Of a DNA stretch of 64,000 nt, positions 40,116 to 54,942 are shown one piece after another. The notes below the pieces were generated by a model. That model saw only the letters and a program-made list of their open reading frames with translations. It was not told where the DNA came from and did not search any database. Every line of letters begins with the position of its first letter. Position 1 is the stretch's first letter. Location: assembly GCA_964532055.1 (NCBI GenBank), contig CAZHFE010000001.1, forward strand, positions 3,576 to 67,575. The letters are read 5' to 3'. Source of the stretch: an uncultured Kaistella sp. (GTDB lineage Bacteria; Bacteroidota; Bacteroidia; Flavobacteriales; Weeksellaceae). The translations under genes were made by a program, and so were the position numbers.

Positions 40116-40188
40116 GCGAAAATAGCTCAGCTGGTAGAGCGCAACCTTGCCAAGGTTGAGGTCGCGGGTTCGAACCCCGTTTTTCGCT
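40116..40188 (+). tRNA. tRNA-Gly (GCC)
   Basis: GCGAAAA/TTTTCGC acceptor stem, TTGCCAA loop, GGGTTCGAACCC. Confidence 0.96.
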
Positions 40189-41831
40189 CATATTTCTACC
40201 TGCCTTGGTGGTGGAACTGGTAGACACGCAGGACTTAAAATCCTGTGTCCGCAAGGACGTACGGGTTCAAGTCCCGTCCGAGGTACATAGCGGGAGTTGG
40301 TTGAAAAATCATCTCCCGTTTCTTTTTTCAACCTCTGGAAATCTCGATTATACCTGCAAAGTAATGAGATTGCTTCATTAAAAGGAAGGGTTCGGAATTT
40401 ATTTTTTTCAAAAATTAATTTTTCTGTGAAGTACGAACCCAATAAAAGTACTTTCGTTTCTACAGTAGCATTTTTGTAAAAATCATCGAGATTTGAGATA
40501 ACCGTAAGTCCGAAAGATAGAAGTTTATTTAAATCATCATTGTAGTTACTATATTCGTTTTTTCTTAACTTCAAATCGACCAGCTCTGACTTTTTTATTT
40601 CCGACATTTTTAAATAGAGGCTGTCATCAATAATCCCATTTATATTTTTATTTACAAGTGCTATTTGCTCTTTTTCTAACTGGCATATTTTTTCCTCTAT
40701 ACTTTTTGATAGTCTAATGCTTTCTTGAAGAGTTTCTTGGTATTCATCAATTAGAATTTCTTCAAATAACTTTAGAATGCCTTTAGAGGGTTTTGCTTTA
40801 GAAAGAACTCTATATAATTCTTTGTGAATTATTTCAGGGGAATACTTCTCTCCACAGTTGTTTGAACATCTATATGAAGAATGAAATACCTTTTTCTGTT
40901 TTCCATTATTACTCTTACTTCCGTAGAGTGGGCTACCACAGCAAGCACATACCAAAAACCCACTTAAAGGAAAGTCAGGGTTTTTAGGTCGTTTCTTTTT
41001 AATCATCCTGTTTCTGCCTTTTTTGATGTCCTGCACCGTGTTAAATAATTTTTCCGGGATGATTGCTTCGTGCAGCCCTTTTTGCAAATTGTAAGGAGGT
41101 ATTTTATGCTTTTTAAGGTCAATATAACCTGCGTACAAAATATTACTCAGGATTATGCTTAATGACGATTCAGAAATATTTAGTCCTTCTGCCTTATATT
41201 TTTTTACCAACTCTGCCTGTGTATATAAACCAGTCGAGTAATCTTCAAATAACTGTCTTATTAGAGGTGCTTTTTCATTTGGTACTATGCCTTTTTTTAA
41301 AGAACCATCTTCATTAATTCTTCCCCACTTATAACCATTCGGGGGAGTTTTAATATATCTTCCCTTCTTCATTGCTCTTCTTTCCCCAAGCCTTGTCCGT
41401 TCGTTAATGATCGCCCTCTCATATTCAGCAAAAGTAAACTTCAAATGCATTATCATTCTACCTTGTGCAGAATCAATATCATTAATCCATTCATCAACGA
41501 AATTAACTTCAATACCTAATTTATTGATGTCTTCATAAGCCTCAACACCTGTCTTAACCCCTCTTGTAAATCTATCGGCTTTTTTAGTTAAAAAGAGGTT
41601 AATTTCACCTTTATTTTCTTTCAAAAATTTATGCGCTTTTTCAAATTGAGGTCTTTTAAAGTCCTTTCCTGAATAAACATCTACATAAGTATCTAAAAGA
41701 ATAATGTTATTGTTTATACAAAAATTTTTAATGCTTTCTTTTTGGCTTTCAAGTGAAGTACCATCTTCTTGGCTAACAGAACTAACACGTAAATATCCTA
41801 CCGCTGTTTTATATGTTTTTTTCTTCTCCAT
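40188..41831 (-). CDS. Large serine recombinase (integrase); C-terminus reads through attL antisense to tRNA-Leu
   Basis: GYLRVSS catalytic motif, SGKDFKRP, KADRFTR, AEYERAIINERT, recombinase domain, zinc ribbon CACC...YRCSNNC, coiled coil. Confidence 0.95.
   Translation of the reverse strand: MEKKKTYKTAVGYLRVSSVSQEDGTSLESQKESIKNFCINNNIILLDTYVDVYSGKDFKRPQFEKAHKFLKENKGEINLFLTKKADRFTRGVKTGVEAYEDINKLGIEVNFVDEWINDIDSAQGRMIMHLKFTFAEYERAIINERTRLGERRAMKKGRYIKTPPNGYKWGRINEDGSLKKGIVPNEKAPLIRQLFEDYSTGLYTQAELVKKYKAEGLNISESSLSIILSNILYAGYIDLKKHKIPPYNLQKGLHEAIIPEKLFNTVQDIKKGRNRMIKKKRPKNPDFPLSGFLVCACCGSPLYGSKSNNGKQKKVFHSSYRCSNNCGEKYSPEIIHKELYRVLSKAKPSKGILKLFEEILIDEYQETLQESIRLSKSIEEKICQLEKEQIALVNKNINGIIDDSLYLKMSEIKKSELVDLKLRKNEYSNYNDDLNKLLSFGLTVISNLDDFYKNATVETKVLLLGSYFTEKLIFEKNKFRTLPFNEAISLLCRYNRDFQRLKKETGDDFSTNSRYVPRTGLEPVRPCGHRILSPACLPVPPPRQVEI
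40202..40285 (+). tRNA. tRNA-Leu (TAA); integration target
   Basis: GCCTTGG/CCGAGGT acceptor stem, CTTAAAA loop, variable arm, GGGTTCAAGTCCC. Confidence 0.96.
40271..40300. other. attL site
   Basis: tRNA 3' end gtcccgtccgag-GT-acatagcgggag. Confidence 0.75.
40291..40328 (+). terminator. Element-supplied terminator after the tRNA cluster
   Basis: cgggag-t-tggtt-gaaa-aatca-t-ctcccg followed by tttctttttt. Confidence 0.65.
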
Positions 41832-41985
41832 CTTTTATTTTTGTTTTTACAGAATTGGCTTTAAACTCTTTGATAACTATCTTAGCCTGTCTTTGGAGTT
41901 CCCAAAGAATTTTTTCTATCTCATCATCAGAAAAATTTTCTCCTGCGTTTTGGAGGGTTTTTCGGGCTTTCTCCTTTGTAACCAT
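41809..41985 (-). CDS. 58-aa ORF immediately upstream of the recombinase (not in ORF track)
   Basis: MVTKEKARKTLQNAGENFSDDEIEKILWELQRQAKIVIKEFKANSVKTKIKDGEEKNI*. Starts 4 nt after the upstream stop and overlaps the LSR start by 23 nt. Confidence 0.65.
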   Translation of the reverse strand: MVTKEKARKTLQNAGENFSDDEIEKILWELQRQAKIVIKEFKANSVKTKIKDGEEKNI

Positions 41986-41988
41986 CAC

Positions 41989-42786
41989 TTATAGTTTTAT
42001 ACTTGTCTCTAATTCATCATTAATGGCAATATCAATCTTCTGAAAACTCCAGCTAATGATTGTCTCCATTACTTCTTCATTGAGAAGTAAACTTTGGGAA
42101 TTTTCAATAAACCTTATATCCCCTTCTTTCAGATGAAACTTGAGGTACTGATAATCGCCCGTTTTAAGAAAGTAAAGCAATAGCATTTTATTTTTATCCT
42201 CTAACGGGTTTTGTATTTTAAAATCTGTTGAAAGAGCATTATTAGGATATTCTAAAGCGATATAATCCTCCAGTTTGAAAATTGTGTGAACAGGAAACCT
42301 TCCTTTAGAAAACCATCTCATATAGGCTTCAAACGAGTATAATCTTGCGTGTCCCTCAATAGGAATATATAAGACTTGGGGCATTGAAAACAAAGTTTTA
42401 ATAACCTCCAACTTAAAAAGTGAAAAATCTTTTATAGATGATTCTAATAATGTCTTTCTCGCATCCTTTAAAATATTTATGGGAATCCCAAACTTACGAG
42501 CATCAAAAACTATATTGAGCCAAATATTCTCCAACCTATTAAATCTTCGTATTTTTCCTTTGTCTCCGTCCTGTAATTTAATGACAGCTTGAGCGAGCCA
42601 ACTATTAACAATTCTTGCAGGATGTTCTGGTTTGATTCCTGTTTTATTTTCCTGCAAACAGTAGTTTAATACATCGTTTCTCAAAAAATGAACGACCTCT
42701 AATGGCAAATCTCCATAAACATCCAATACTGCTTTTTCGCTAATACTTTTTTCCTGTTGTCTTGCTTTCTCAATATCAAATCCCAT
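41989..42786 (-). CDS. Protein with MerR-like HTH region
   Basis: ARIVNSWLAQAVIK...IRRFNRLENIWLNIVFDARKFGIPINILK resembles the MerR wHTH pattern; TATATTTG promoter at 42803-42810. Confidence 0.55.
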   Translation of the reverse strand: MGFDIEKARQQEKSISEKAVLDVYGDLPLEVVHFLRNDVLNYCLQENKTGIKPEHPARIVNSWLAQAVIKLQDGDKGKIRRFNRLENIWLNIVFDARKFGIPINILKDARKTLLESSIKDFSLFKLEVIKTLFSMPQVLYIPIEGHARLYSFEAYMRWFSKGRFPVHTIFKLEDYIALEYPNNALSTDFKIQNPLEDKNKMLLLYFLKTGDYQYLKFHLKEGDIRFIENSQSLLLNEEVMETIISWSFQKIDIAINDELETSIKL

Positions 42787-42883
42787 AATCGAAATATTTT
42801 TACAAATATATAAATTTTACAATTAAATGTAACAAAAATTTTATTTTATTTCTTTTCGATGTATTATGAATTGTTTTCTACAA

Positions 42884-42913
42884 AAAAGACTTTCTAATAA
42901 TAAGAAAGTCTTT
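42884..42913 (-). terminator. Terminator after qatD
   Basis: aaagacttt(t)ct-aataata-agaaagtcttt. Confidence 0.65.
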
Positions 42914-42948
42914 AAAATGAAATAGTACTTTTATTAAGTGTAAAGTTC

Positions 42949-43680
42949 TTATTTCAAACAACTAATTAATCTTAAGAAGTTAGATGAAATAATATTTTCT
43001 ACGTTGTAACTCGAGGCATTCCATTCTTGAGCCAAATAATCGATTACTGGGGATGTTTCTCCCGGATTTAAAGGTAAACCTTTCTCAACTATAAATGGAC
43101 CATCTGTTTCTGTTAAAATAAACTCTTTAGGTATTTTTGATATGATTTTCCTTCCAGAGACAGATTTTATCATTGCCGGATTAACAGAGAAAAAATAACC
43201 TGCTTCTCTAATGGCTTCAATTAAATCTAATCTTCCTGAATACCAATGAAAAATTGCATATTTTATATTATATTCTAACAATAGATCTAAAACTTCTTTC
43301 TCCGCTTTTCTGGAATGAATGCTCAATATTTTTTTCTGCCCTGAAATAATCTTAAGTATTTTAGAAAAAGTATCTAATTGAATATCTTTTGTAGAAATCC
43401 CTTCTTTAGAAAAGTCTAAACCAATTTCTCCTATATACGATGTTTTACCAACGTTCTTAATGAATAAATCAAACTCCTTTTTATGCGAATCGGCCATCAA
43501 AGGGTGCATTCCTAAAGCTAATCTTATTCTTTTTAATGATTGAAAATGAGCGTATCCCATTTCAAAATGGCTTGGCAAATTGGTCATTGCTAATACTGAT
43601 ATATTAGCTTTTATGCAATCCTGCAAAACTTTTCTTGGATTCTGATATAAATCTATATGGCAGTGTGTATCAATAATCAT
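42949..43680 (-). CDS. qatD: TatD-family nuclease, Qat defence subunit D
   Basis: DTHCH, LGMHP, IGEIGLD, SIHSR, FHWYSG, LTETDGP; ATGA overlap with qatC. Confidence 0.9.
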   Translation of the reverse strand: MIIDTHCHIDLYQNPRKVLQDCIKANISVLAMTNLPSHFEMGYAHFQSLKRIRLALGMHPLMADSHKKEFDLFIKNVGKTSYIGEIGLDFSKEGISTKDIQLDTFSKILKIISGQKKILSIHSRKAEKEVLDLLLEYNIKYAIFHWYSGRLDLIEAIREAGYFFSVNPAMIKSVSGRKIISKIPKEFILTETDGPFIVEKGLPLNPGETSPVIDYLAQEWNASSYNVENIISSNFLRLISCLK

Positions 43681-45044
43681 CTTATCCCTAACTCAGACTT
43701 TACAAATCTATTTCCTTTATCTCTAAATAATTGTAAAACCTCTTCTTTAGACCTTAATACCATATCCGCATACTCTTCAAGATCAGCAATCTCAATATTT
43801 CCATTCACTAATAAATCTCTTTTCATATTTTCCAAAGAAATATTTCTTTTTAAATAGCTGGTTAATGCAGGCAGATCTTTACTGTAATTTCGTGAAGTGG
43901 CATTAGTAATAAAATTGCCATAGTGGTCTTCATTATCTAATGTTGCTTTATTTAGAGCAGCCCTTCTATAAATGCAAGGCATACATATTCCACATTCTTG
44001 TACTCCAGTTCTTACTTCCCAATTTTGTTTCCTTCCTCTTTTACCACAAGAAACCGAATCTTGAAAAATACTTTGTATAAATGTTTGGTTTGTACATTCA
44101 ACAAACATTTCCCCCTTAGTTTTAAATGTATAAGGGTTATGTATTCTTGTAGATACTCCTAAATCGGCAAGTAATTCTTGAGTGTTTTTCAATACATAAG
44201 GATGCGTTGTTCTAGTACTTAAAGAACTCACTCTTGATGGAGTTAGTGGATAATTGATTGAGATTGTGCCGTTCTCAGGAATTATCAAATCATCAGTAGG
44301 GGACAAATAACAACCCAAACCAATGAAAAAGAAAGAACGACTACGGTAATTATTTTCGACATTTATTTTATTGCCATCACTATCTTTTCTTAACAATGCC
44401 AATTTTGATTGCACCCAATATATTTTGTCTTGATATTGGGCCATCAAATGCCTTAATAGCTTTCTTTGGTCTCCATTTGGACCTGGGGATTTTGAATCAA
44501 AATGAGATACCAAAAGTATTCTTTCATTATTTCCTAGCTTCTCCAATTCATCGATAACTCCAATTAAAGAATCCAAACCACCCGAAAATAAACTTACAGA
44601 TTTGATGGAGTCTCTGTCGTAAGTTGGAATTTTTCTTCTGTTTGTACGTGGTTGAAACAAATTAACTTCTTCTATTTCTCGGAAATAAATCTGCCAATTA
44701 TCACCTGTTAAGAAGTCTAAAACTTGTTTCAATTTTTCTTCTTTCCCACTCCAAACAGCTAAGTTATTCACTGGAAATTCCACTTCTATATCTCTTGCCC
44801 AACCATCATTTGAATAAATAGCCCGACTAAGCAGGTTATCTACACCATAAACTATTGCAGACACAAGAAAAAAATCAAATTTTACAGAAGTAAAATCAGT
44901 CGTAAAATCAAAAACCCTTTCATAACCTAAGAATGATAATGGAACTTTTCTATTCACTCCATTATCCATATAACAAAGTTGCAAATCTGAGAACTTGCCA
45001 TAATCTGCATCCTCAATAACTACGTTTACTCTCATATTATTCAA
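43677..45044 (-). CDS. qatC: QueC-like protein, Qat defence subunit C
   Basis: SLFSGGLDS PP-loop, RSRSFFF, IPENG, TRTTHP, SCGK...CGICMPCIYRR. Confidence 0.9.
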   Translation of the reverse strand: MNNMRVNVVIEDADYGKFSDLQLCYMDNGVNRKVPLSFLGYERVFDFTTDFTSVKFDFFLVSAIVYGVDNLLSRAIYSNDGWARDIEVEFPVNNLAVWSGKEEKLKQVLDFLTGDNWQIYFREIEEVNLFQPRTNRRKIPTYDRDSIKSVSLFSGGLDSLIGVIDELEKLGNNERILLVSHFDSKSPGPNGDQRKLLRHLMAQYQDKIYWVQSKLALLRKDSDGNKINVENNYRSRSFFFIGLGCYLSPTDDLIIPENGTISINYPLTPSRVSSLSTRTTHPYVLKNTQELLADLGVSTRIHNPYTFKTKGEMFVECTNQTFIQSIFQDSVSCGKRGRKQNWEVRTGVQECGICMPCIYRRAALNKATLDNEDHYGNFITNATSRNYSKDLPALTSYLKRNISLENMKRDLLVNGNIEIADLEEYADMVLRSKEEVLQLFRDKGNRFVKSELGIR

Positions 45045-45777
45045 ATACGGTTAATATATCTTGCTGAATATTTTTAACAACCCTATCGGCTTCGTCAGAA
45101 CTCCAATCAATGTTTTGTAGTGGATTTCTTTTGTGCATATCTCCAACTCTTTCAACTATAAAATTTTTTATTTGGTTGAAAAGGTTGTTACAATCACTTT
45201 CACTCTTATTTTTTATTAAATTTTCATAGAACCACTTTGATAAAAGCTCATTAATGTAATATCCAAAATATTTTACTATTACATCTTCCAATGTATTTGT
45301 GGTAAAAGTCTCCTGTAATAAAGTTTGTACTTCATCAATGGATTCAGCTTGCCCCATTAGTTCTTCTAATAATAATCTTGTGGCTTCTTTTGCCGCATTA
45401 TCATCAATTGAAGTTGCATTACCGGAACAATACTCAATCAAATGATTAATTACATCGCCAACCGTTTTATTATCAATATCGGTTAAACCAGTAGATTCAA
45501 GAGTTTCTCTAATATTATTACCCGAACTGATAAACTTTGAAAAGACTCCTCCGATTTTCTTTGCAGTTCTGATACTGCTTCTTCCTCCTGCTTTTGAACC
45601 GCCACGCCCTCCTGTTGATGCTCCGCCCAATGCTGAAACAAAATGCCCCATAATGTTCTGTAGCTTCTGAGCTGGAAGAACAGAAGAATCACAATTTGAG
45701 GTAAGCGAAGAACTAAGCGTACCCCAATTCGGAACCATTGAGTGTTTTACATCAGAAAATGATTTAGATGTTCCCAT
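45037..45777 (-). CDS. qatB: Qat defence subunit B
   Basis: MGTS N-terminus, Gly-rich GGASTGGRGGS segment, position between qatA and qatC. Confidence 0.8.
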   Translation of the reverse strand: MGTSKSFSDVKHSMVPNWGTLSSSLTSNCDSSVLPAQKLQNIMGHFVSALGGASTGGRGGSKAGGRSSIRTAKKIGGVFSKFISSGNNIRETLESTGLTDIDNKTVGDVINHLIEYCSGNATSIDDNAAKEATRLLLEELMGQAESIDEVQTLLQETFTTNTLEDVIVKYFGYYINELLSKWFYENLIKNKSESDCNNLFNQIKNFIVERVGDMHKRNPLQNIDWSSDEADRVVKNIQQDILTVFE

Positions 45778-45779
45778 TT

Positions 45780-47678
45780 CTATTTTTTTAGATTAAACGC
45801 TTTACTTGCTCTTGATTTTCCATCTTTGAAATAATCATTCAAAAACGTTCCAATTTCAGGTTCTGATTTAAAGTCTGCCAATCTCGTAGCAACCGCAGGT
45901 TCAATATCTGATACGCTGATTATTTTAAGAGTTTCCATATAGTGATAAACTGCATTTTCTATTTTATCTTCTGTCATTACATTGAAAATGTCATACAACC
46001 GCTTTTGCTGAGGATTCCTTTTTAAATTTGAAGATAAAAGATTGAAAAAAGCATCTTTTTCAATATCGCTAAAAGGTTGAAATTTTTCATATAGTAGAGA
46101 TTTTGTAACTGTTGCCGTCATATTATCGGGTAATAACTCATTAAACAATGCCCTTACTACTGGTGGAATCATACTCGTTGCAGTGATAGAATTTTCTAAT
46201 TTATCACGGGCAATCCAATAATAATCCCGTAAATCAACTCCTGATAACAATGGTTCTATTTGAAACCATTTTATTATTTTGGGTTTACTCCATTCTTTGA
46301 AATCAGTATCTTTTATTTCCAAAAGAACATCCTCAATGCCTTTATCCTTACATATAGATTCTATTTCTGTTATTTCTTTTGGCATTCCGTCTTGGGAAAT
46401 TTGCCACTCAAATAATTTTTTGAACAGCTTGGGTTCTGAATATTCAAGTATCATCATTTTTGCAAGAACAGCATCATTAAAACTTTGTAACGATGCAACT
46501 TCGGCAAGTCTTTTTCTAATTGTATAAGTATTTAGAAACCGTTTAATCTGTCGGGGATTTCCATACAAACTATTTGTAATCAATGGTACTAATGCCGGAA
46601 TCGTAATTACATTATCTTTAACTTTTCCAAATTCCTCTGCTTCTAAAATCTTTTCAAAATTTGATAATCCAAATGCAGAATATTTATTCGTTAACCTATA
46701 CTTCTGAAATTCAGCAAGTACGTTTTCAAATTTGGTATTATCAATCTCTTTTTTACAGATAAGCATTGATATATAAGTTTCGACTTCTGATTCCGACAAT
46801 CTCGGTAACGAATATGGAAGCTGAATTAATTTTTCTAAATAATCAATAACAATTCGGTTGTTATCTTCTTCGATTTCTTTATTATTTTTGTATTTATTTT
46901 CAATGGCATATTTCACTATTCGAGGGTCTGCTCCAATAATGAATGCTGTTTTGGGTACGTTTAGGAAAAGTTTAATTGCTTCAAGGTTCTCAATAATTCT
47001 TTCGGGGCTACATCTGTCTAAATCATCAATAATTACAACCAATCTTTTAAAGTTTGTGGCTTCTAAGAGTTCAGCAAAATCTTTTCTAAATTCTGCCACC
47101 GCATTAGTGGAATTTTTATCTTCCTCTTTACTTTCTTTTATAAAGGCTTTAAATGTTTCCTGACCTTCTTTGGAGTTAAGTTTTTCTATTATTTTTTCAG
47201 GATTATCTCCCCATTCGGTTAGCTTTTGAACGGCAAAAGGAAGTAAACTAATGCCTCCTGTAAAGTATGCAGAAACAGCGGGTAAGGCAACATTCTTCAT
47301 AACCATACCTGCTCCACGTATCCAATCAATAGATTTCCAAAGTTTCTTTGCTTTTTCTTTTATCGTATCCTTTATTTCGGCTGAAATCTTTTTATTGTCT
47401 TCCAATTCCTTAAGAATTGAATTTAGCAATGCGGCTTTAGCATCATCATATCCTTCAAAAGTCCATCCATTAAAGTATATGCAGAGAGAATCCTTATCAT
47501 CCTCCTTATCAAATTCTTCTTTTACTATTTGTAAGATACTGGATTTCCCACTTCCCCAATCGCCAAAAACGCCTATTGTAATCGGCAAAACAGACTCGTC
47601 ATTGATTATATTGATTAACAAATCTGCGTGTACTTTAAAACCTAAAAGGTCTTCGGAGGTTTCGTTATCTGCCCACAT
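45780..47678 (-). CDS. qatA: KAP-family P-loop NTPase, Qat defence subunit A
   Basis: MWADNET, IGVFGDWGSGKSS, FNGWTFEGYDDAK, IIDDLDRC, YLEKLIQ, GNPRQIKRFLN. Confidence 0.92.
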   Translation of the reverse strand: MWADNETSEDLLGFKVHADLLINIINDESVLPITIGVFGDWGSGKSSILQIVKEEFDKEDDKDSLCIYFNGWTFEGYDDAKAALLNSILKELEDNKKISAEIKDTIKEKAKKLWKSIDWIRGAGMVMKNVALPAVSAYFTGGISLLPFAVQKLTEWGDNPEKIIEKLNSKEGQETFKAFIKESKEEDKNSTNAVAEFRKDFAELLEATNFKRLVVIIDDLDRCSPERIIENLEAIKLFLNVPKTAFIIGADPRIVKYAIENKYKNNKEIEEDNNRIVIDYLEKLIQLPYSLPRLSESEVETYISMLICKKEIDNTKFENVLAEFQKYRLTNKYSAFGLSNFEKILEAEEFGKVKDNVITIPALVPLITNSLYGNPRQIKRFLNTYTIRKRLAEVASLQSFNDAVLAKMMILEYSEPKLFKKLFEWQISQDGMPKEITEIESICKDKGIEDVLLEIKDTDFKEWSKPKIIKWFQIEPLLSGVDLRDYYWIARDKLENSITATSMIPPVVRALFNELLPDNMTATVTKSLLYEKFQPFSDIEKDAFFNLLSSNLKRNPQQKRLYDIFNVMTEDKIENAVYHYMETLKIISVSDIEPAVATRLADFKSEPEIGTFLNDYFKDGKSRASKAFNLKK

Positions 47679-47759
47679 AAATTGTAATTGTTAATGTGTG
47701 AAAATTATTCAAAGTATTCTATGTTGTCAGCAAAAATATTTCATTACGATTAATAAATA

Positions 47760-47775
47760 TTACGGAAAACCGTAA
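47760..47775. repeat. TTACGG-N4-CCGTAA palindrome, copy 1
   Basis: ttacggaaaaccgtaa between the Sir2 remnant and qatA. Confidence 0.75.
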
Positions 47776-47800
47776 AAATGAATTTAGTATTAAAAAATAA

Positions 47801-48012
47801 TTTTTCATATTTATAGTTCTTATAAAATTCGGCAGAATTTATATTTTAGACAGATAAATATCTTTTTTCCTCTTCCAAATACAGTCATAAGCAGATTGAA
47901 TACCAGAACTAATAGACGCTCCAGCACCCAATAAAAAAGAATGCGGAACATCCAAATTCCATTTAAAAGACCTTAAAAATGCATCGTATTCAAGTAGTAT
48001 GTTTTCTGTCAT
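47801..48012 (-). pseudogene. Truncated, frameshifted Sir2-domain gene (resembles SPARSA Sir2-APAZ N-termini)
   Basis: MTENILLEYDAFLRSFKWNLDVPHSFLLGAGASISSGIQSAYDCIWKRKKDIYLSKI* (47839-48012); one extra A would continue it as SKNINSAEFYKNYK. Confidence 0.75.
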
Positions 48013-48043
48013 ATTAATTTACCTTTATATACAGACGGGTTAT

Positions 48044-48748
48044 TTATAAATATTTTAATAATTCTTCTGCCAACCTAAATACTGTAGTCGATGATTCTTC
48101 TTTCGCTGGATTTTTGTGGTCAAATTGTTCAAAGTTTCTTGTAGCTCTTGTAATAGCTAAATCAACTCTTTTCTTTTTTGTTTTCGTATCAATTCCGTCT
48201 AATAACTCAAAAAAATCCTCACTCACTTTTTTAGTCCCGTTTCCGTCATATGTTACGCCGAACGGTTTAAGTAATTCATTTATTTTGTCGTTGTAATCAC
48301 TCCTGTGCATTCCTCCTCCTTGATGGTCGTCAAAATGAAGAATTAACCAATACTCAAAAGATTGATTAGAATAAGCTACATTAAAATTTTGAGCTTCTGC
48401 TATTTGGATTGCACGATTAAAATCATTTTCAGTAAAGTCGTCTTTGTCAAATACACACCAAACTTGGTCATATTGCTTTTCGCCCGCTAATTGTTCTGCT
48501 CTATTGACCAACGATATTGTGTTATACCCTTCGCCAACTGATTTTACCGTTGCAGAAGAAAGTCTAAACTGATTGAAATAGGAAGGCTCTGTATTTTCAC
48601 CTTCACAAACAATCAATATCGAAGGTTTTTCAATCAATTCAGCATCTGGTCTTTCCAAATTTGGTTCAATCCGCCTTTTAGCTTTAAGTTGTTCCTTATG
48701 TTTTTGTTTAGCCGCTATTTGCTCAGCTCTTTTGTTCTTCATTTTCAT
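48044..48748 (-). CDS. RloB-family (AbiLii-like, TOPRIM-like) protein
   Basis: LIVCEGENTEPSYF, VWCVFDKD, AYSNQSFEYWLILHF, STTVFRL. Confidence 0.9.
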   Translation of the reverse strand: MKMKNKRAEQIAAKQKHKEQLKAKRRIEPNLERPDAELIEKPSILIVCEGENTEPSYFNQFRLSSATVKSVGEGYNTISLVNRAEQLAGEKQYDQVWCVFDKDDFTENDFNRAIQIAEAQNFNVAYSNQSFEYWLILHFDDHQGGGMHRSDYNDKINELLKPFGVTYDGNGTKKVSEDFFELLDGIDTKTKKKRVDLAITRATRNFEQFDHKNPAKEESSTTVFRLAEELLKYL

Positions 48749-50057
48749 ATTGCGGCATATTAAAATTTAGGTTATCAAAAAAGCCTAAATATGGAATAGC
48801 ACCATATTTACCTCTAATGTAATTATCTTCAAAAGGTTCATTTTTCTTAACTTCATCAGACTTAAAGTTTGCTAAAGAATATAGTTTAGCCTCACCGTAT
48901 TTATCTTTATTCGTAAACCAAATTTGGTCTCTTCTAAATAAGCCTGAACTTAATAAGTTAGTATCGTGAGTGTTGAAAATTAATTGAGCGTTTTTTGTAT
49001 TGAATTCTTTTGAGTTAAACAAAGAAACAATTTTACACACTAAATTGGGATGTAACTTTGAATCAAGTTCGTCAACAACTAAAGTGTCGCCGTTTTCAAT
49101 GACATCTAAAATAGGACCCGTTAAAGCAAAAAACTTTCTTGTCCCCGAAGATTCATCTTCATCAAGAGAAAAATTCACATTGCCCAATAATTGCTTATTT
49201 AAGTCATACTTTTTATGGGTTGTCAATATATCAGCAAAAAACTGAGTGTTTTCTTCTTTCATTTTCCTAATAATTTCATCCTTCATCTCTTTAGGCATTC
49301 CTGTAGGCAATTTATCAATATCCAATTTTTGAATCTTAATATCCTGAATCCCTAAGTCAGCAGCTTTTAATAATTCAAGAATTTTTGCTTTATGTGTTGG
49401 AATTTCGGTTTTGCCAACAGTAAAACCTTGATATCCGATTTCATCTAAACCTGAAAGGAATTTCAGTTTTTTAAACCAATCAACGACTGCAATAGCTATT
49501 TTTTCATTGAATTGTGCTGCAACTGAAATGAAAAGAGCATTATCTCTTACAAGCCCTCCTTTTATTACTGCTGAACCTCTTGTGAATTTTCTGCTATGAG
49601 TTTCAAATTGATTTCCATCTCTGTAAAACAATTCAATCTCCTTTGTTTTAGGTTTATGATATAGCCATTCTGAAACAATATTTTCTTTAGTCGCTTCAAA
49701 ACCATAACGAAATAATTCTCCATTAAAAAGAAAAATAATTTCAAATTCAGATGGCTCATTTTCGGTTTCTTTACTTAAACGAAATGGTTCAACTTCAATG
49801 CTTTCTCCTTTTTGAGTTTCTTTTGAACTATTAATCACAAAATATCTCATAAAAGCAATAGCATCTAAAAATTTACTTTTTCCACTTGCGTTTGCTCCAT
49901 AGATTACTGCACTTTTGAGTAATCTGTAATTAAATGTTTGGTCTTCAAAAACATTCTCTACTTCTCGTGTTTCTTTATCATAATTAGAAGCAATTAAACT
50001 CAAAGTTGCTTTATCCTTAAAGATTCTGAAATTTTTAACTGAAAATTGTAGAAGCAT
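48723..50057 (-). CDS. RloA/AbiLi-like ABC-type ATPase
   Basis: IYGANASGKS, ESSGTRKFF, LVVDELDSKLHP, QLIFNTHD, RRDQIWF, YIRGKYGAIP. Confidence 0.92.
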   Translation of the reverse strand: MLLQFSVKNFRIFKDKATLSLIASNYDKETREVENVFEDQTFNYRLLKSAVIYGANASGKSKFLDAIAFMRYFVINSSKETQKGESIEVEPFRLSKETENEPSEFEIIFLFNGELFRYGFEATKENIVSEWLYHKPKTKEIELFYRDGNQFETHSRKFTRGSAVIKGGLVRDNALFISVAAQFNEKIAIAVVDWFKKLKFLSGLDEIGYQGFTVGKTEIPTHKAKILELLKAADLGIQDIKIQKLDIDKLPTGMPKEMKDEIIRKMKEENTQFFADILTTHKKYDLNKQLLGNVNFSLDEDESSGTRKFFALTGPILDVIENGDTLVVDELDSKLHPNLVCKIVSLFNSKEFNTKNAQLIFNTHDTNLLSSGLFRRDQIWFTNKDKYGEAKLYSLANFKSDEVKKNEPFEDNYIRGKYGAIPYLGFFDNLNFNMPQYENEEQKS

Positions 50058-50361
50058 AATAATTTCGCTTTTGTTAAATTTTATTACAAAGATAATACTT
50101 ATTTATTTCGCATATACAAAATAAATGTAATTTTTAACAAATTTACGATTTAAAACGCTTTTATTTTACGAGTATTAACAAAATAATAATTTCCATAGAG
50201 GTGTTTTTATTATAAGATATTTTTAATACTTTATGATGGTTGATGTTTAATTTTGCAAAAATTCAGGTGTTTTTCAAGTGGAAACTCAAAGCCAAATTTA
50301 AAATCTCAACTTAACAAATATATCTCTTTAAAAGTTTTGCTACCTTTCTAATCATTCATAA

Positions 50362-50395
50362 AAAATGCTACTTATGTCTAAATAAGTAGCATTTT
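50362..50395 (-). terminator. Terminator after the OB-fold membrane gene
   Basis: aaaatgctactta-N8-taagtagcatttt. Confidence 0.75.
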
Positions 50396-50415
50396 ACTAT
50401 TATCAACTCAATTCA

Positions 50416-51672
50416 TCACTCCCACAACTCGCAATTTTTAACAACCACATCCGTCAGAGAACGTCCTGAGCAAGTTCCGATAATCTGAACCTTCTGACCT
50501 TTATTAAGTTGGGAAAGAACTTTATTATTTTTATCCGAGAAATAGCAGTTCACACTTTGCAGGTAGTCGATTTTCAGAGAAACATAAGGGTCATCCAATA
50601 CATCCTTTCCAATTGTTCCTACAACTCCTTTAATCAGTAGTCTTTTTCCTTTATATTGTCCATCTGCTGAAACTTCATTAGCTTCATAGGCATTGTAAAG
50701 TTCCGATGCTGATACTTCCATATCAACCTTTGGAAACAGCTTGCTGTTAGGGTCAACTTCTTTCAGCTTGGTTAAAAATCCGTCTTTGGTGGCAAGATAA
50801 GGATAGATATAACTTCCTTTGTCATTCCAAGAAGAAAGACCTTTATTTTTAGCCTCGTAAAGTGCTTCTAAATTTTGCTTATCCGGGTTCATTAAAGCAA
50901 AGAAAGGGGTTAAATCATAGTCGTATTTGATTTGCTGTGAGTTCATATTCGCATCATACGTCATTCCTTTTACTCCAGATGCATTGAATTTGTTTTTATA
51001 ACGGACAAAGACATCAATAATCTCTTCCGGCAATCCGCCATTTACAGTTGGCATAGCCAAAGCACCACACTTAACCACAAAATCCATTTTGTTTTCTCCG
51101 TCTTCGGAGGATGTTACCTGTTTTTCCAAATCTGCATTAATAGCATAATTCTTAGACGAAATATTAGTAATTCCATTGGTTATAGCGTTGAGAACCGGCA
51201 GATATTCCGAACTCACAACTTTTTCAGTCACCAGCTTAGTATAAACCGGATTTTCTTTTAATGCGGAAAGCAGTTTCTCTCTGTTGGCTTTCAACTCCGG
51301 AGAAAGAGAAGCAATATTTTTAGCCGATTCGTCAAGATAGCTTTGATAAGGGTTTTGATTGACAACCTCTTCGGTTTTTTCTTTTGTAATCGAAGTGGAA
51401 GCAGGAAATTTTGTTTTGTTGGCTGTTATTCCAATCAAAGCCAACAGCACAGCATAAGAAACATACCGGACAGCCCGACTGTTCCATTGCTTTAATTTTT
51501 GTTTTAAATTTTCCGAGACCGGAGGAAGGATAACCACTCCTAAAATTGCAGAAATTAATCCTGCGAGCACTTCTTTCTGTGCAATCATTCCGAGTGCGGC
51601 AATGATGAACAATGCACCGATAATAAACTTTACGATTCTCATAAGACTGATATTTTTAAAATTAAACTTCAA
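50416..51672 (-). CDS. Membrane-anchored protein with C-terminal tRNA_anti-like OB fold
   Basis: Three N-terminal TM helices; C-terminal VSASELYNAYEANEVSADGQYKGKRLLIKGVV...LNKGQKVQIIGTC. Confidence 0.8.
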   Translation of the reverse strand: MKFNFKNISLMRIVKFIIGALFIIAALGMIAQKEVLAGLISAILGVVILPPVSENLKQKLKQWNSRAVRYVSYAVLLALIGITANKTKFPASTSITKEKTEEVVNQNPYQSYLDESAKNIASLSPELKANREKLLSALKENPVYTKLVTEKVVSSEYLPVLNAITNGITNISSKNYAINADLEKQVTSSEDGENKMDFVVKCGALAMPTVNGGLPEEIIDVFVRYKNKFNASGVKGMTYDANMNSQQIKYDYDLTPFFALMNPDKQNLEALYEAKNKGLSSWNDKGSYIYPYLATKDGFLTKLKEVDPNSKLFPKVDMEVSASELYNAYEANEVSADGQYKGKRLLIKGVVGTIGKDVLDDPYVSLKIDYLQSVNCYFSDKNNKVLSQLNKGQKVQIIGTCSGRSLTDVVVKNCELWE

Positions 51673-51768
51673 TTTTATTCTCTTTCAGCCCCAGAAAGAT
51701 TCATAAAACCGGAAACCGACCTTTAATAAAATGAGTTTCCAATTTTAAAGATTGTTTATTGGTTTTCC

Positions 51769-51784
51769 TTACGGAAATCCGTAA
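51769..51784. repeat. TTACGG-N4-CCGTAA palindrome, copy 2
   Basis: ttacggaaatccgtaa, extended by flanking tattggtt/aaccaata. Confidence 0.75.
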
Positions 51785-51819
51785 AACCAATAAAAAAAGG
51801 CGTGAGGACTTAACCAAAC

Positions 51820-51931
51820 GCTTCAAAGGCATCGCCAAACGCCCTATAACAATATGGAAAGCCCCACACCAAGTGTGGTAGCGGTTTTCCATATTCTCTG
51901 TTATAATTTGAAATTGGCGATTTCTTGAAGC
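51820..51931 (-). ncRNA. Structured RNA candidate: five nested stems
   Basis: gcttcaa/ttgaagc, atcgccaa/ttggcgat, tataac/gttata, aatatggaaa/tttccatatt, ccacac/gtgtgg. Strand inferred from the flanking genes. Confidence 0.6.
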
Positions 51932-52220
51932 AAGAATATGATTACACTACTTTGTTTTATCTATATTAAATTTACTTTTCTTATAAGTTTTATTTTTTAA
52001 CTTCTGCTAATATAGAAATTTCCTTCCATAAATTAAATCGGTTGCTTTAAAATTATATTCCTTTAAAAATTTTCGCATCAGCGAAAATTCCTCTATTCAT
52101 GGTATTTTCAACGGGTTTGTTGAAATATTTTACATTCAAAATTCGGTTGTTTTTCCTGCGATATTTCCGTTCAAAATTCCTTTTGGTGTTATCCCTTTGC
52201 TTTTAAAATTTGAAGGAATT

Positions 52221-52898
52221 TTAAACCTCTATTTGCGCTTGAAAAAATCTATCATATAATATCAACACTTGAGATGAGGTAAATTCACAGCCTCTGCTGG
52301 TCTTGAAACCGCTTTTATTCAGCTCATCAGCAATCTTTCCGTAACTGTTTCCGGCATTTCGTAATGAAACAATGAGGGCAGTTGCCTTACGGTTGTTCTC
52401 ATTTTGAAGAGCCTTTAACCTCATCGCCTCGCTTCCCATTTGTCTGGCTTTGGCAGTTAGGTTATTTGGAGTTCCAAGTTTTACGCCTTTCGCTTTGAGT
52501 TCCTGAAGTGCAGCAATGGTTCTTTTGCTGATGAGTTCCCGCTCTTCTTGTGCAAGAACTGCCATTATTCCGATTGTAATCGAATTGGCTTCCGGCATAT
52601 CACAGCATTTGAAATCTATATTGCTATCCTTCAATAAAAAGATAAACCCAGCATTTCTGCTGAGTCTATCAAGTTTAGCGATGAGCAAGGTTGCACCTTC
52701 ATTCTTACTTTTCTCTATGGCTTTCAGGAGCTGAGATCTGTTATCATTCTTGCCACTCTCAATTTCCTCGAATTCGTCTATCAGAATATCATCATCTTTG
52801 AGATAATTTCTTACCATTGATTTCTGGGCTTCCAATCCTAAGCCGGAATTTCCTTGTCTCTGAGTTGACACTCTGTAATAGGCTATGTATTTTTTCAT
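52221..52898 (-). CDS. Small serine recombinase (resolvase/invertase family)
   Basis: YIAYYRVSTQRQ, ESGKNDNR, AKLDRLSRN, AQEERELISKRT, GVKLG, C-terminal HTH. Confidence 0.93.
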   Translation of the reverse strand: MKKYIAYYRVSTQRQGNSGLGLEAQKSMVRNYLKDDDILIDEFEEIESGKNDNRSQLLKAIEKSKNEGATLLIAKLDRLSRNAGFIFLLKDSNIDFKCCDMPEANSITIGIMAVLAQEERELISKRTIAALQELKAKGVKLGTPNNLTAKARQMGSEAMRLKALQNENNRKATALIVSLRNAGNSYGKIADELNKSGFKTSRGCEFTSSQVLILYDRFFQAQIEV

Positions 52899-53041
52899 TT
52901 TTAGTAGTTGGGTTGGTTTGTAATGGTGCTTGAACGCTCGTTTATGAAATTCAACGGCAGTGATTTCCTATGCAAATATTTAATTTTCAGGGTCTGATTC
53001 TCTTAAGCATGCCTCATTTGCCTCGTTATATGCACAAATTG

Positions 53042-53785
53042 TCACGAAAATTCAATGTGTTTTTTGTTTATTAAATCCACCTCTTCATTTAGCAAGTCGC
53101 TTGGAACTGTCCAGTAGGAAAGGCTTTTGTAAGTCCAGACCCTGTAAATTATATCCTCATATTCAACTAAATTCCCAAAGTACCTTATATGAGAAACTAT
53201 CTTCAAAAAAGTGGAATTATTGCCGAATTTCTCACGGATTGAATAGAAATGAGGATTGTTTTGCATCGTTTTAGCAAACGTCCATTCCATACGTTCTAAA
53301 GTTTCCCCTGCGAACTGGTCAGTCAGATTGAAATGACCTCTGAGTTTGTAGATGTCTTCACTCCAGTATTTGCGTTGGATGTTTTGGTCAATACCTGTTT
53401 CATCTTCTACAGGGATTTTGTTGGCTCTTAAAAAGTCTGCAAAGATGTGACGGTAGCAAAACTCGTTGCCTTCTCCATATCCGAGCAGGACAACCTTAGT
53501 GGTATTCTCTTCTTTGCAGAACTGTCTGAGGTCAGTCAGTAGTTTTTCTACTCCCTTTCTTTCCACCTTTTTCCGGTAAAGTAGATTACAGGCTAAAAAA
53601 TCTCCTGCTCTCTGATTATCATACATTCTGAATATACTGAACCCTACCAGCTTTCTGACCTTCTCCGAGTTTCTGAAACTTCCATAGACTTTCCCTACAA
53701 CGCTTACCAGTGTATAGCCTTCATAGGTTTTTGTGTTTAAACTCTCGAAACTTTCAGTAACTATCTGTAAATCTGCATTTTTCAT
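53042..53785 (-). CDS. DUF488-like domain fused to an uncharacterised WTFAKTM..PH.Y domain
   Basis: VVLLGYGEGNEFCYRHIFADFL resembles the DUF488 LLCxE..FCHRH motif; C-terminal WTFAKTMQNNPHFYSIR...SYWT. Confidence 0.55.
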   Translation of the reverse strand: MKNADLQIVTESFESLNTKTYEGYTLVSVVGKVYGSFRNSEKVRKLVGFSIFRMYDNQRAGDFLACNLLYRKKVERKGVEKLLTDLRQFCKEENTTKVVLLGYGEGNEFCYRHIFADFLRANKIPVEDETGIDQNIQRKYWSEDIYKLRGHFNLTDQFAGETLERMEWTFAKTMQNNPHFYSIREKFGNNSTFLKIVSHIRYFGNLVEYEDIIYRVWTYKSLSYWTVPSDLLNEEVDLINKKHIEFS

Positions 53786-53840
53786 TACTTAAAGATACAA
53801 AAATTTTCGCATACGCAAAAATAAATCACTGATATACTGT

Positions 53841-54035
53841 AAGTTACAATCAGGATGTCAAGTAACTTTATAAAAACTGCCTAACACTACTGCTGGTGGT
53901 TTGAATGTTTCTGACTCTTCCCATACTTCCTAACCCTATCTACCTTTCTCCTCTCTGCTATATAATTAATTTACTCTGTACTGTACAGAGTTCACAGAGT
54001 AAGGTGTAGGGGATATTTTCTTTTCCCCTATATAC
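53841..54035. other. Inverted-repeat cluster, candidate origin (oriV/oriT)
   Basis: aagttac/gtaactt (53841-53868), actctgtac-t-gtacagagt (53973-53991), tagggga/tccccta (54007-54030). Confidence 0.35.
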
Positions 54036-54061
54036 CCCATTACTACTGTACACATTTTTTC

Positions 54062-54814
54062 CTAATCAATTTTTTTAAATTTCCGCTTCAAATGAACATT
54101 GATTTTGATGAGGTCTGAGCCTTTGATTAAAATTCCTCTCGCTGATTTTATGCAATACTGTTTATTGAAACTGATGTGCTTCATAAATTCTGCACTCACT
54201 TTGTTTCCCCTATCATCTTCTAAATAAAAATGGTTTTTCTTAATCGAAATAAAGTTGTTTTTTAAAGCCTCTTTTTTCAAGTTCTCTGCTGTGGTAACAG
54301 AAACGCCCAAACACTTGGCAAAATACCTCACAGGAAGGTCGTAAAAGTTTTTAGGATAAGCATAGGTATTCATACTGGGTATTCCATTAATTACACCCGA
54401 CACCTTATTTTTCTTATCCGTAAATTTTTTTGAGTTCCTGTAAAATCCTATAAGTGCAGCAGCACAAAGTCCACGAAAATCTTTAAAATCATTTCTATCA
54501 AATTTTAGAGCAGTTTGTGAACTTAATCTGTATTGCCGTTTTAATTGAACATAACTTACTACCCTCAACGATTGTTTTTTGGAGTTAAAAGAAAGCCATC
54601 TTTTTCTCAGCATCCAATCCAGAGAACTCTTAAAGGTTTTTACATTAATCCCTATTTCTTTTGCCTATATTTTATGACTGTCGGCTTTCACAGACAAATG
54701 ACCGCTGGATATGCACTTTAGAAAAATGTATATTTTAAGATGATTGAGTTTTCGTCTGGTAATAGCAAATTGTATTAACCCAATAGGAATTGTTGTGTAA
54801 GCCCCCTTCATCAT
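54062..54814 (-). pseudogene. Rep-like/HTH protein (250 codons) interrupted by an in-frame TAG at 54665-54667
   Basis: Frame is open from ATG 54814 (MMKGAYTTIPIGLIQFA...) to 54062 except for TAG at codon 50. HTH-like segments AKEIGINVKTFKSSLDW and YFAKCLGVSVTTAENLK. Confidence 0.65.
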
Positions 54815-54942
54815 AACCTTGCGAAATTTTGAGGGGTTTGTGCTAATGGGTATAAGCCTGCCTCTTCCAAGATGGGCTTCAGGTCATACAATCTCTTTAA
54901 ACCTTCATAAAATTGGTTCGTAATGAGTTTCGCTACGGGTAC
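54811..54942 (-). other. Orphan 3' exon-like segment: alternative LSR C-terminus used in the excised form
   Basis: In frame with the LSR across the core: VP-VAKLITNQFYEGLKRLYDLKPILEEAGLYPLAQTPQNFARL*; the stop overlaps the next ATG. Confidence 0.7.

Follow-up and report, generated by a model that had tools for sequence, protein, structure and literature searches.

A long hairpin on a Kaistella recombinase island: a divergent, orphan member of a Flavobacteriales family of structured non-coding RNAs and probable terminators

Hoffmann et al. (Nature 2026, PMC13472631) described a mode of transcription in which a nuclease-dead Cas12f (dCas12f) acts together with a guide RNA and an ECF sigma factor dedicated to it, and in which transcripts start 45–48 bp downstream of a 5'-G TAM. 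The same study reported an abundant 'hth-associated ncRNA' between hth and rpoE-dcas12f, which is also found upstream of susCD targets; the guide-matching site overlaps the 5' end of this ncRNA on the same strand, and Chryseobacterium gleum contains seven such loci. The published target classes are susCD, two-component systems, and rpoE-dcas12f. The ncRNA was abundant in Flagellimonas RNA-seq, the downstream genes were poorly expressed, and a role as a negative regulator was proposed, the role of the ncRNA and the promoter driving it being stated as open by the authors (PMC13472631). In Bacteroides, the multicopy sRNAs FopS/GibS possess sigma-A-type promoters and are functionally linked to susC genes (PMC11697453).

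The window analysed here is a 64,000-nt stretch of the genome of an uncultured Kaistella sp. RNA folding of positions 51820–51931 yielded a single long imperfect hairpin containing five stems, namely GCTTCAA/TTGAAGC (7 bp), ATCGCCAA/TTGGCGAT (8 bp), TATAAC/GTTATA (6 bp), AATATGGAAA/TTTCCATATT (10 bp), and CCACAC/GTGTGG (6 bp). All five nested stems, and an ATG inside the 10-bp stem, are present as described in a first-pass annotation made from the sequence. The 112-nt hairpin folds as RNA with energies of −47.0 kcal/mol (z −7.9) on the plus strand and −45.4 kcal/mol (z −7.1) on the minus strand, and none of 200 shuffles folded equally well on either strand. A 63-aa ORF over the hairpin (51701–51892, minus strand) is not kept in homologues and was rejected. 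The limits first assigned to the hairpin are appropriate for a core but not for the full extent of the structure: the hairpin is the core of a larger dyad-symmetric unit of ~155 nt, as pairing and conservation span from ~51799 to ~51953, with a T-run (51792–51798) beyond. As described below, we read this hairpin as a divergent, orphan member of a Flavobacteriales family of structured ncRNAs that probably act as terminators.

The full rod-like unit (51799–51953, minus strand) is delimited by the conservation limits in homologues and by covarying rod pairs. Its 5' half (~51953 to 51873) is complementary to its 3' half (51870 to 51799), and the minus-strand segment from 51960 to 51788 folds with an energy of −53.5 kcal/mol (z −4.6). 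The 3' half alone forms a hairpin of ~72 nt (51799–51870, minus strand), an intrinsic-terminator-type stem that corresponds to the published hth-associated ncRNA; its energy in the window is −32.5 kcal/mol (z −5.2), whereas the same DNA read on the plus strand yields merely −14.2 kcal/mol (z −1.4). Three segments on the minus strand define two alternative folds: region 1 (CTACCACAC, 51873–51881), which supplies the 5' strand for the rod's apical stem; region 2 (GGTGTGGGGC, 51861–51870), a homologue of the motif GGCGTGGGCTC that the dCas12f guide targets in relatives; and region 3 (CCTCACGCC, 51799–51807), which is the 3' strand of the terminator stem and lies directly before the U-run. Region 2 is able to pair with either region 1, forming the apical stem of the rod, or region 3. 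The unit is a palindrome of palindromes, in which the two halves can zip into one rod or each half can fold on itself. In the window copy, the rod (−51.8 kcal/mol) is thermodynamically favoured by ~5 kcal/mol over the two-hairpin state, in which the separate halves sum to −47.2 kcal/mol (−14.7 and −32.5 kcal/mol), and six other loci show the same behaviour; termination would therefore depend on co-transcriptional folding, which is assumed here. Both folds are intact in the window copy, as is the U7 tract (51792–51798, minus strand) that follows the hairpin.

In BLAST searches over relatives, full-length homologues were found in genome G171 (90% identity), in three species of one genus (g66, 78%), in a Kaistella MAG (G016, 74%), and in a Chryseobacterium MAG (G308, 74%). 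The edges of conservation among these homologues are sharp (~51803 and ~51945), and the flanks are unrelated. At a comparable level of identity, the element is single-copy in its own genome. A first covariance model (R1), built from five window-type sequences only, gave full-length matches in 38 of 401 Weeksellaceae genomes and scored 38–52 bits on hth-susC loci. A second model (R2), rebuilt from 25 matches, detected the element in 93 of 401 Flavobacteriales genomes, covering 16 of the 105 genera sampled and several families, with 1–7 copies each; it scored 122 bits on the window copy and 61–80 bits on the hth-sigma-dCas12f loci of three genomes (G112, G289, and G198). A diverged second copy in the genome of the window itself (contig C30, 14431–14581; L003:1479–1619, L081) was among the R1 matches and scored 88 bits with R2. 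The C30 copy is located between a divergent KilA-N gene and the gene for a 435-aa secreted protein, beside a conserved copper ATPase gene, and the part of this locus comprising the KilA-N gene and the element is variable within the genus.

Covariation in the family is strong, compensatory changes being visible both by eye and in RNAalifold. In the rod alignment, 89% of cells are paired (66% in shuffles and ~40% in slid controls) and 40 of 47 rod pairs have changed on both sides, values reached by none of 500 shuffles; these counts come from a structure-fitted alignment and are hence biased towards the structure. A plain MAFFT alignment independently showed compensatory change in 11 of the 16 outer pairs. 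The conserved box ATCGCCAA (plus-strand reading, 51831–51838), which pairs with its partner box TTGGCGAT (51914–51921), is replaced by ACTGCCAT/ATTGGCAGT, ACTGGTAA/TATACCAGT, and ATCCCCAT/ATTGGGGA in homologues; the atcgccaa...ttggcgat frame that the first-pass annotation linked with Bacteroidota mobile DNA is a conserved, covarying box of the family. The helix formed by regions 2 and 3 also exhibits compensatory changes, with ~50 G·U and only 2 A·C combinations. On the rod, the corresponding numbers are 112 and 52, which are not decisive for the strand because three columns dominate. An inverton (invertible promoter) was rejected as an explanation of the dyad, the interior of which is also palindromic and covarying.

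Searches of RNA and mobile-element collections yielded no match to this family. In the window, only three tRNAs reached the gathering score of Rfam 15; a permissive scan over the element gave best scores of 18–24 bits against thresholds of 72–208, the permissive scan of the region gave noise (12–24 bits against thresholds of 35–208), and scanning ten homologous loci gave nothing. The Rfam comparison took in 6S, 6S-Flavo, Flavo-1, FopS, and RAGATH motifs. BLAST against plasmids and phages and a pattern scan of viral contigs found no match to the element. FopS/GibS share with the element a multicopy distribution in Bacteroidota, sigma-A-type promoters, and a link to susC (PMC11697453), but FopS consists of a single-stranded 5' seed and a short terminator hairpin, is included in Rfam, and is restricted to Bacteroidaceae; identity with FopS/GibS was rejected, and the Rfam scans gave no such match at the element. 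The proposal that the hairpin is a structured nucleic-acid element is thus borne out by a conserved, covarying family lacking an Rfam entry. The accompanying designation 'undescribed' had to be abandoned, since the family can be matched to the hth-associated ncRNA that was described in 2026 from sites targeted by dCas12f-sigmaE (PMC13472631).

This correspondence was tested on loci with a dCas12f-like gene. In G112 and G289, the element is flanked on one side by a divergent hth gene and followed on the other by genes for a 271-aa sigma-like protein (Sigma70_r2/r4) and a 407-aa dCas12f-like protein and then by a guide RNA. The 407-aa protein gave no Pfam match in G112 and G289 and was regarded as a dCas12f homologue because of its position and the adjoining guide RNA. 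On the 3' side of its gene, a conserved scaffold ending in ...ATACAAC is followed by GGCGTGGGTTCTTT, a guide that matches the conserved motif GGCGTGGGCTC of the element. The last 14 nt of the guide match the most conserved motif of the family, GGCGTG(G/A)G(C/T)TC (region 2), in the same sense and with a preceding G; a same-strand guide match beside a 5'-G TAM was found in G112, G289, and G198, including all seven copies of G198, and the same guide is present in G134, in G191, and at three G308 loci. A pairing of the ParB-linked elements in g66 and G308 with the guides of their own genomes was rejected, as these do not match. Among 19 element-bearing genomes tested, 11 lack a close homologue of dCas12f.

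On the basis of this context and the guide match, the published ncRNA can be equated with the part of the unit that runs from region 2 to the U-run (its 3' half), and the family as a whole is best identified with the hth-associated ncRNA of Hoffmann et al. (2026), as judged from gene neighbourhood and sequence correspondence. As in the published description (PMC13472631), members lie beside a divergent HTH gene, upstream of and co-stranded with susCD or rpoE-dcas12f; up to seven copies occur in Chryseobacterium-like genomes; and the dCas12f guide seed coincides with the start of the 3'-half RNA. The paper covers the RNA from the guide-matching site only, whereas the unit defined here adds the 5' half complementary to it, a predicted terminator, and, ~100 nt upstream of the site matched by the guide, a sigma-A-type promoter. 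The element also differs from the dCas12f guide RNA and the omega-RNA of TnpB: it shares loci with the former, the 14 nt of the guide being near-identical to region 2 in the same sense, but the scaffold (GAGGGTGCTTGTA.ACCCGCAGGGTGAGG...ATACAAC) bears no relation to the element, whose part in the system is that of a target, not of a guide. In the ParB-linked elements of G308 (L047) and G016 (L046), ...ATACAAC is found just before region 2 and is followed by GTGAGGATTTTCC; the guide-RNA scaffold ends in the same 7 nt, which may reflect chance or a trace of common origin.

The strand on which the element works was examined using the Bacteroidota consensus TAnnTTTG for the −7 box and TTTG for the −33 element. 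An exact TAnnTTTG box is present in the minus-strand (RNA) sense in 39 of 51 unique loci, mostly 26–30 nt upstream of the modelled element, and 27 of those 39 loci also contain TTTG at the right spacing for the −33 element; the box occurs in 4.6% of control windows of the same size. In most loci, a U-run is located 3' of the element on the RNA strand, and in most of the 39 loci examined, the 3' half alone forms a closed hairpin (median −31 kcal/mol). The promoter, the U-run, and the strand-specific folding of the 3' half identify the minus strand of the window as the working strand, and the strand is settled by the helix of regions 2 and 3 and the single-strand folding of the 3' half. In the window, the stable minus-strand hairpin (51870 to 51799) is followed directly by U7, as in intrinsic terminators. 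A simple terminator scan returned nothing at the element; its rules need an unbroken stem with a loop of 3–8 nt and exclude long interrupted stems. The ParB-linked relatives do not contain the U-run; the subfamily is therefore not uniform, and the designation 'terminator' does not extend to all of its members.

The spacer between the −33 and −7 elements contains an inverted repeat that, by eye, covaries between loci (GTTAC/GTAAC, GCTAC/GTAGC, and ATTAC/GTAAT). It was seen in L064, L068, L073, L088, and L094–L112 in the forms AAGTTAC..GTAACTT, AAGCTAC..GTAGCTT, and ATTAC..GTAAT, and may be an operator to which the HTH protein encoded nearby binds. In G112, a second perfect palindrome, ATTACGGTCG-TT-CGACCGTAAT, is located nearer the start of hth.

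These strand-specific signals bear on proposals that the element acts as single-stranded DNA. The first-pass annotation had considered an antitoxin-like RNA and a single-stranded hairpin origin; neither found support, as the element has no conserved small ORF and no relaxase, Rep, or conjugation gene nearby, and the promoter, the U-run, and the G·U-dependent strand asymmetry point to RNA. More generally, the hairpin could be an ssDNA element of mobile DNA, such as a single-strand origin, an oriT hairpin, or a Frpo-like ssDNA promoter. Frpo/ssi promoters and ssoA-type origins are likewise long imperfect hairpins on mobile DNA, the present hairpin resides on an integrated island, and genes for ArdA, DUF1896, and topoisomerase-repeat proteins are found near some homologues. 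These systems differ, however, in that the element has no conjugative context and is flanked by a canonical duplex promoter and a terminator. Relaxase, Rep, and conjugation genes were not found beside the element in any locus examined, the plasmid, phage, and viral collections contain no matches, and many copies lie upstream of chromosomal susC operons together with a canonical dsDNA promoter and a U-run. The specific ideas of a Frpo-like promoter, sso, or oriT were dropped in view of the canonical minus-strand promoters, the U-runs, and the absence of relaxase and Rep, and an ssDNA function is very unlikely. An attC-like cassette was likewise dropped in view of the minus-strand promoters, the U-runs, and the absence of an IntI gene; in the comparison with integron attC sites, there was no tyrosine recombinase gene, tandem copies numbered two at most (g66), and the boxes were unlike RYYYAAC/GTTRRRY.

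The next downstream gene is co-oriented with the element in 47 of 53 loci and belongs to many unrelated families, including SusC-like receptors (14 loci), the ECF-sigma-like 271-aa protein (3 loci), lipoproteins, and an Rhs operon. A small divergent XRE/HTH gene is located upstream in ~29 of the 53 loci. In the subfamily that contains the window copy, the downstream genes encode a ParB-like protein and a large serine recombinase (g66 and G308, with a remnant in G016) or are cargo genes. The order of small serine recombinase, element, and OB-fold gene is seen again in G048, a member of another family, and G171 and g66 share part of it.

Several further features were noted around these loci. In g66 (L044/L048), two elements of different subtypes flank the gene for a 268-aa membrane protein in a layout that resembles a cassette array: small serine recombinase, element 2, 268-aa gene, element 1, ParB-like, large serine recombinase, and MerR-like. 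In L076 (G400:C1:529000–548900), the element heads a minus-sense operon encoding small secreted proteins and then a 1230-aa Rhs/YD-repeat protein, likely with immunity genes, and an ArdA antirestriction gene is located 0.9 kb away on the other side. The loci without hth (L051, L053, L060, L066, L090, L092, L093, and L103), together with the window (51732–51751), contain a conserved TAnnTTTG-GGACTG(A/G) motif after the terminator and 20–45 nt before the next start codon; the downstream gene probably has its own promoter here, together with a start region that is conserved. The spacer of ~370 nt between the element and susC (L057, L064, L068, L069, and L074) is conserved across genera (e.g. ...TCTAAGCCCGCTTCC...ACGATACAATAGGAGGGTACAACCTATTGCGGC...) and may hold a further leader element.

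The recurrent recombinase genes raise the possibility that the long dyad is a dsDNA site at which neighbouring serine recombinases carry out resolution, inversion, or attachment. In the window, as in G171 and G048, a small serine recombinase gene is the direct upstream neighbour of the element, and in g66 it is located one gene further upstream; the ParB-like and large serine recombinase genes lie directly downstream in g66 and G308, with the remnant in G016. Recombinases are adjacent in a minority of loci only, however, and for most family members none is nearby. The interior stems covary freely with complementarity kept, and the 3' half depends on G·U pairs on one strand, neither of which is expected of a duplex protein site. 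The known res, hix, and att sites of serine recombinases are also far shorter than this dyad. We therefore consider a recombination site very improbable.

The copy in the window departs from the typical arrangement in several respects. It is homologous to the other members by the covariance model and has conserved boxes in common with them, but hth and an exact promoter box are missing from its locus and dCas12f from its genome, the guide seed is mismatched, and its neighbours on the recombinase island are genes for a serine recombinase on one side and an OB-fold protein on the other. Where a divergent HTH gene would be found immediately upstream, the window contains a co-oriented gene for a small serine recombinase (225 aa; 52221–52898, minus strand; Resolvase PF00239, 1.4e-25). 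The window copy is among the 12 of 51 loci without an exact −7 box and contains no −33 TTTG. A box on the minus strand at 51967–51974, TAAATTTA, is one mismatch from TAnnTTTG and ~14 nt upstream of the rod and is a weak candidate for a promoter without a −33 TTTG; the promoter-like box indicated in the first-pass annotation, TATATTAG (52007–52014, minus strand), is indeed present and also one mismatch from the consensus. Neither dCas12f nor a cognate sigma factor was found in the 94%-complete genome by tblastn and genome search, and region 2 of the window (G followed by GTGTGGGGCTTT) differs from the canonical guide (G followed by GCGTGGGTTCTT) at seed position 2.

Downstream on the same strand, the U-run is followed by a second small hairpin (51752–51797) and, 127 nt downstream of the element hairpin, by the start of the co-oriented OB-fold gene (50416–51672, minus strand), which encodes a 418-aa tRNA_anti-like membrane protein and has a homologue after the element in G048; the small hairpin (palindrome copy 2 of the earlier annotation) and the OB-fold gene were thus both placed correctly. 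The element is therefore located upstream of a possible regulated gene and on the same strand, as in the published system, although the OB-fold gene is not among the published target classes. By eye, TAAAATTG followed by GAAACTCA (51740–51747, minus strand) resembles TAnnTTTGGGACTG downstream of the element in other loci without hth and is likely the OB-fold gene's own promoter.

The island (40188–54942) is bounded by tRNA-Leu(taa), which is overlapped by a gene for a 547-aa large serine recombinase (40188–41831), and by pyrD. It carries a Qat-like set of genes encoding a KAP NTPase (632 aa), a 246-aa protein, a QueC-like protein (455 aa), and TatD (243 aa), as well as an AAA_21 and RloB pair, and looks like a defence island. 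Short hairpin cores of the sequence TTACGGAAA(A/T)CCGTAA are located in intergenic regions of the island at 47761–47774 and 51770–51783 and represent the palindrome copies of the first-pass annotation.

The missing partners of this copy would also agree with a decaying, functionless relic left on the island by an ancestor that took part in an RNA-guided transcription circuit: its own genome is without dCas12f, hth, and the exact promoter box, and the seed of region 2 is mismatched to the canonical guide. Yet both folds are intact together with the U7 tract, G171 (90% identical) and more distant relatives maintain the pairs through compensatory changes, and the order of recombinase, element, and OB-fold gene recurs in another family (G048). 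A relic is accordingly improbable. The element most likely works as a minus-strand RNA, encoded upstream of the OB-fold gene and in the same orientation, and the explanation that we favour overall, and hold to be fairly probable, is that it is a minus-strand structured ncRNA, a divergent member of the hth-associated ncRNA family, acting here only as a terminator/insulator RNA.

We infer from the modelled folds that the 3' half serves as an intrinsic terminator. The unit would be bistable, each half folding alone as it is transcribed or the two halves zipping into one rod. Folding in the order of synthesis would generate two hairpins, the second of which (51870 to 51799) abuts U7 and would terminate transcription, an arrangement in keeping with the abundance of a discrete ncRNA and the poor expression of the genes beyond it in the published RNA-seq. 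In homologues, the position 46 nt beyond the TAM, corresponding to the published start site, is 20–39 nt before the U-run and falls within the 3' arm; the stem left after this position has a median energy of −2.2 kcal/mol, compared with −31 kcal/mol for the whole 3' half. Because the start site is inside the 3' arm, guide-directed transcripts would escape the terminator that stops sigma-A transcripts. In dCas12f-bearing relatives, guide-directed transcripts would thus be made without the stem and continue into the target gene, and those from the sigma-A promoter would stop and accumulate as the ncRNA. The window copy, most likely a terminator/insulator RNA between the recombinase and OB-fold genes according to the predicted folds, would stop transcripts that enter from the serine recombinase gene, or that start at a weak promoter of the element, before they reach the OB-fold gene, which is apparently served by its own promoter. 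The suggestion in the first-pass annotation of a cis-regulatory leader is close to this reading and to the gate outlined below.

Like Rho-independent terminators and attenuator leaders, the element has a G+C-rich stem abutting a U-tract, with region 2 pairing upstream or downstream (1:2 or 2:3). It differs from them in its far longer stem (~70 nt) and in the conservation of its sequence across families, and from attenuators in having no evident leader peptide, ligand, or antiterminator protein and in its proposed bypass, which would be initiation inside the terminator and not refolding.

The conserved interior could alternatively reflect a trans-acting or otherwise regulatory sRNA (an anti-sigma-like negative regulator or a protein-binding decoy) for which termination only sets the 3' end. 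The abundance of the ncRNA in Flagellimonas and the negative-regulator role proposed by the authors (PMC13472631) agree with such an RNA, as do the presence of the element in genomes without dCas12f and the conservation of loops and internal loops (e.g. GAGUUCCA and the AUCGCCAA box) beyond the needs of a terminator. On the other hand, neither a target nor a partner came to light, the strictly shared orientation of the element and the gene after it (47 of 53 loci) suggests action in cis, and a canonical promoter is absent at the window copy. We regard an sRNA of this type as rather unlikely.

For the family as a whole, we tentatively propose, as one possible model, a transcriptional gate composed of a sigma-A promoter (probably repressible by the HTH protein), a bistable leader whose 3' half is a strong terminator, and a dCas12f-sigmaE R-loop site in the 5' arm of that terminator, with orphan gates captured by serine-recombinase islands. 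Guide-directed initiation ~46 bp downstream, inside the 3' arm, would escape termination in such a gate, and orphan, diverged gates would front ParB/large-serine-recombinase or cargo genes and insulate them or make them switchable. If the gate is true, the 'hth-associated ncRNA' would be explained as the terminated product of a closed gate. The comparison offers a testable answer concerning this ncRNA: a −33/−7 promoter ~100 nt upstream of the guide site, a 3' half that forms a terminator hairpin, and a start site inside the 3' arm of that terminator. The family represents an RNA family that is missing from the annotation of Flavobacteriales, although it is present in 23% of the sampled genomes and is multicopy in Chryseobacterium-like genomes. 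It is wider than the dCas12f systems and reaches mobile islands with serine recombinases, as in the window.
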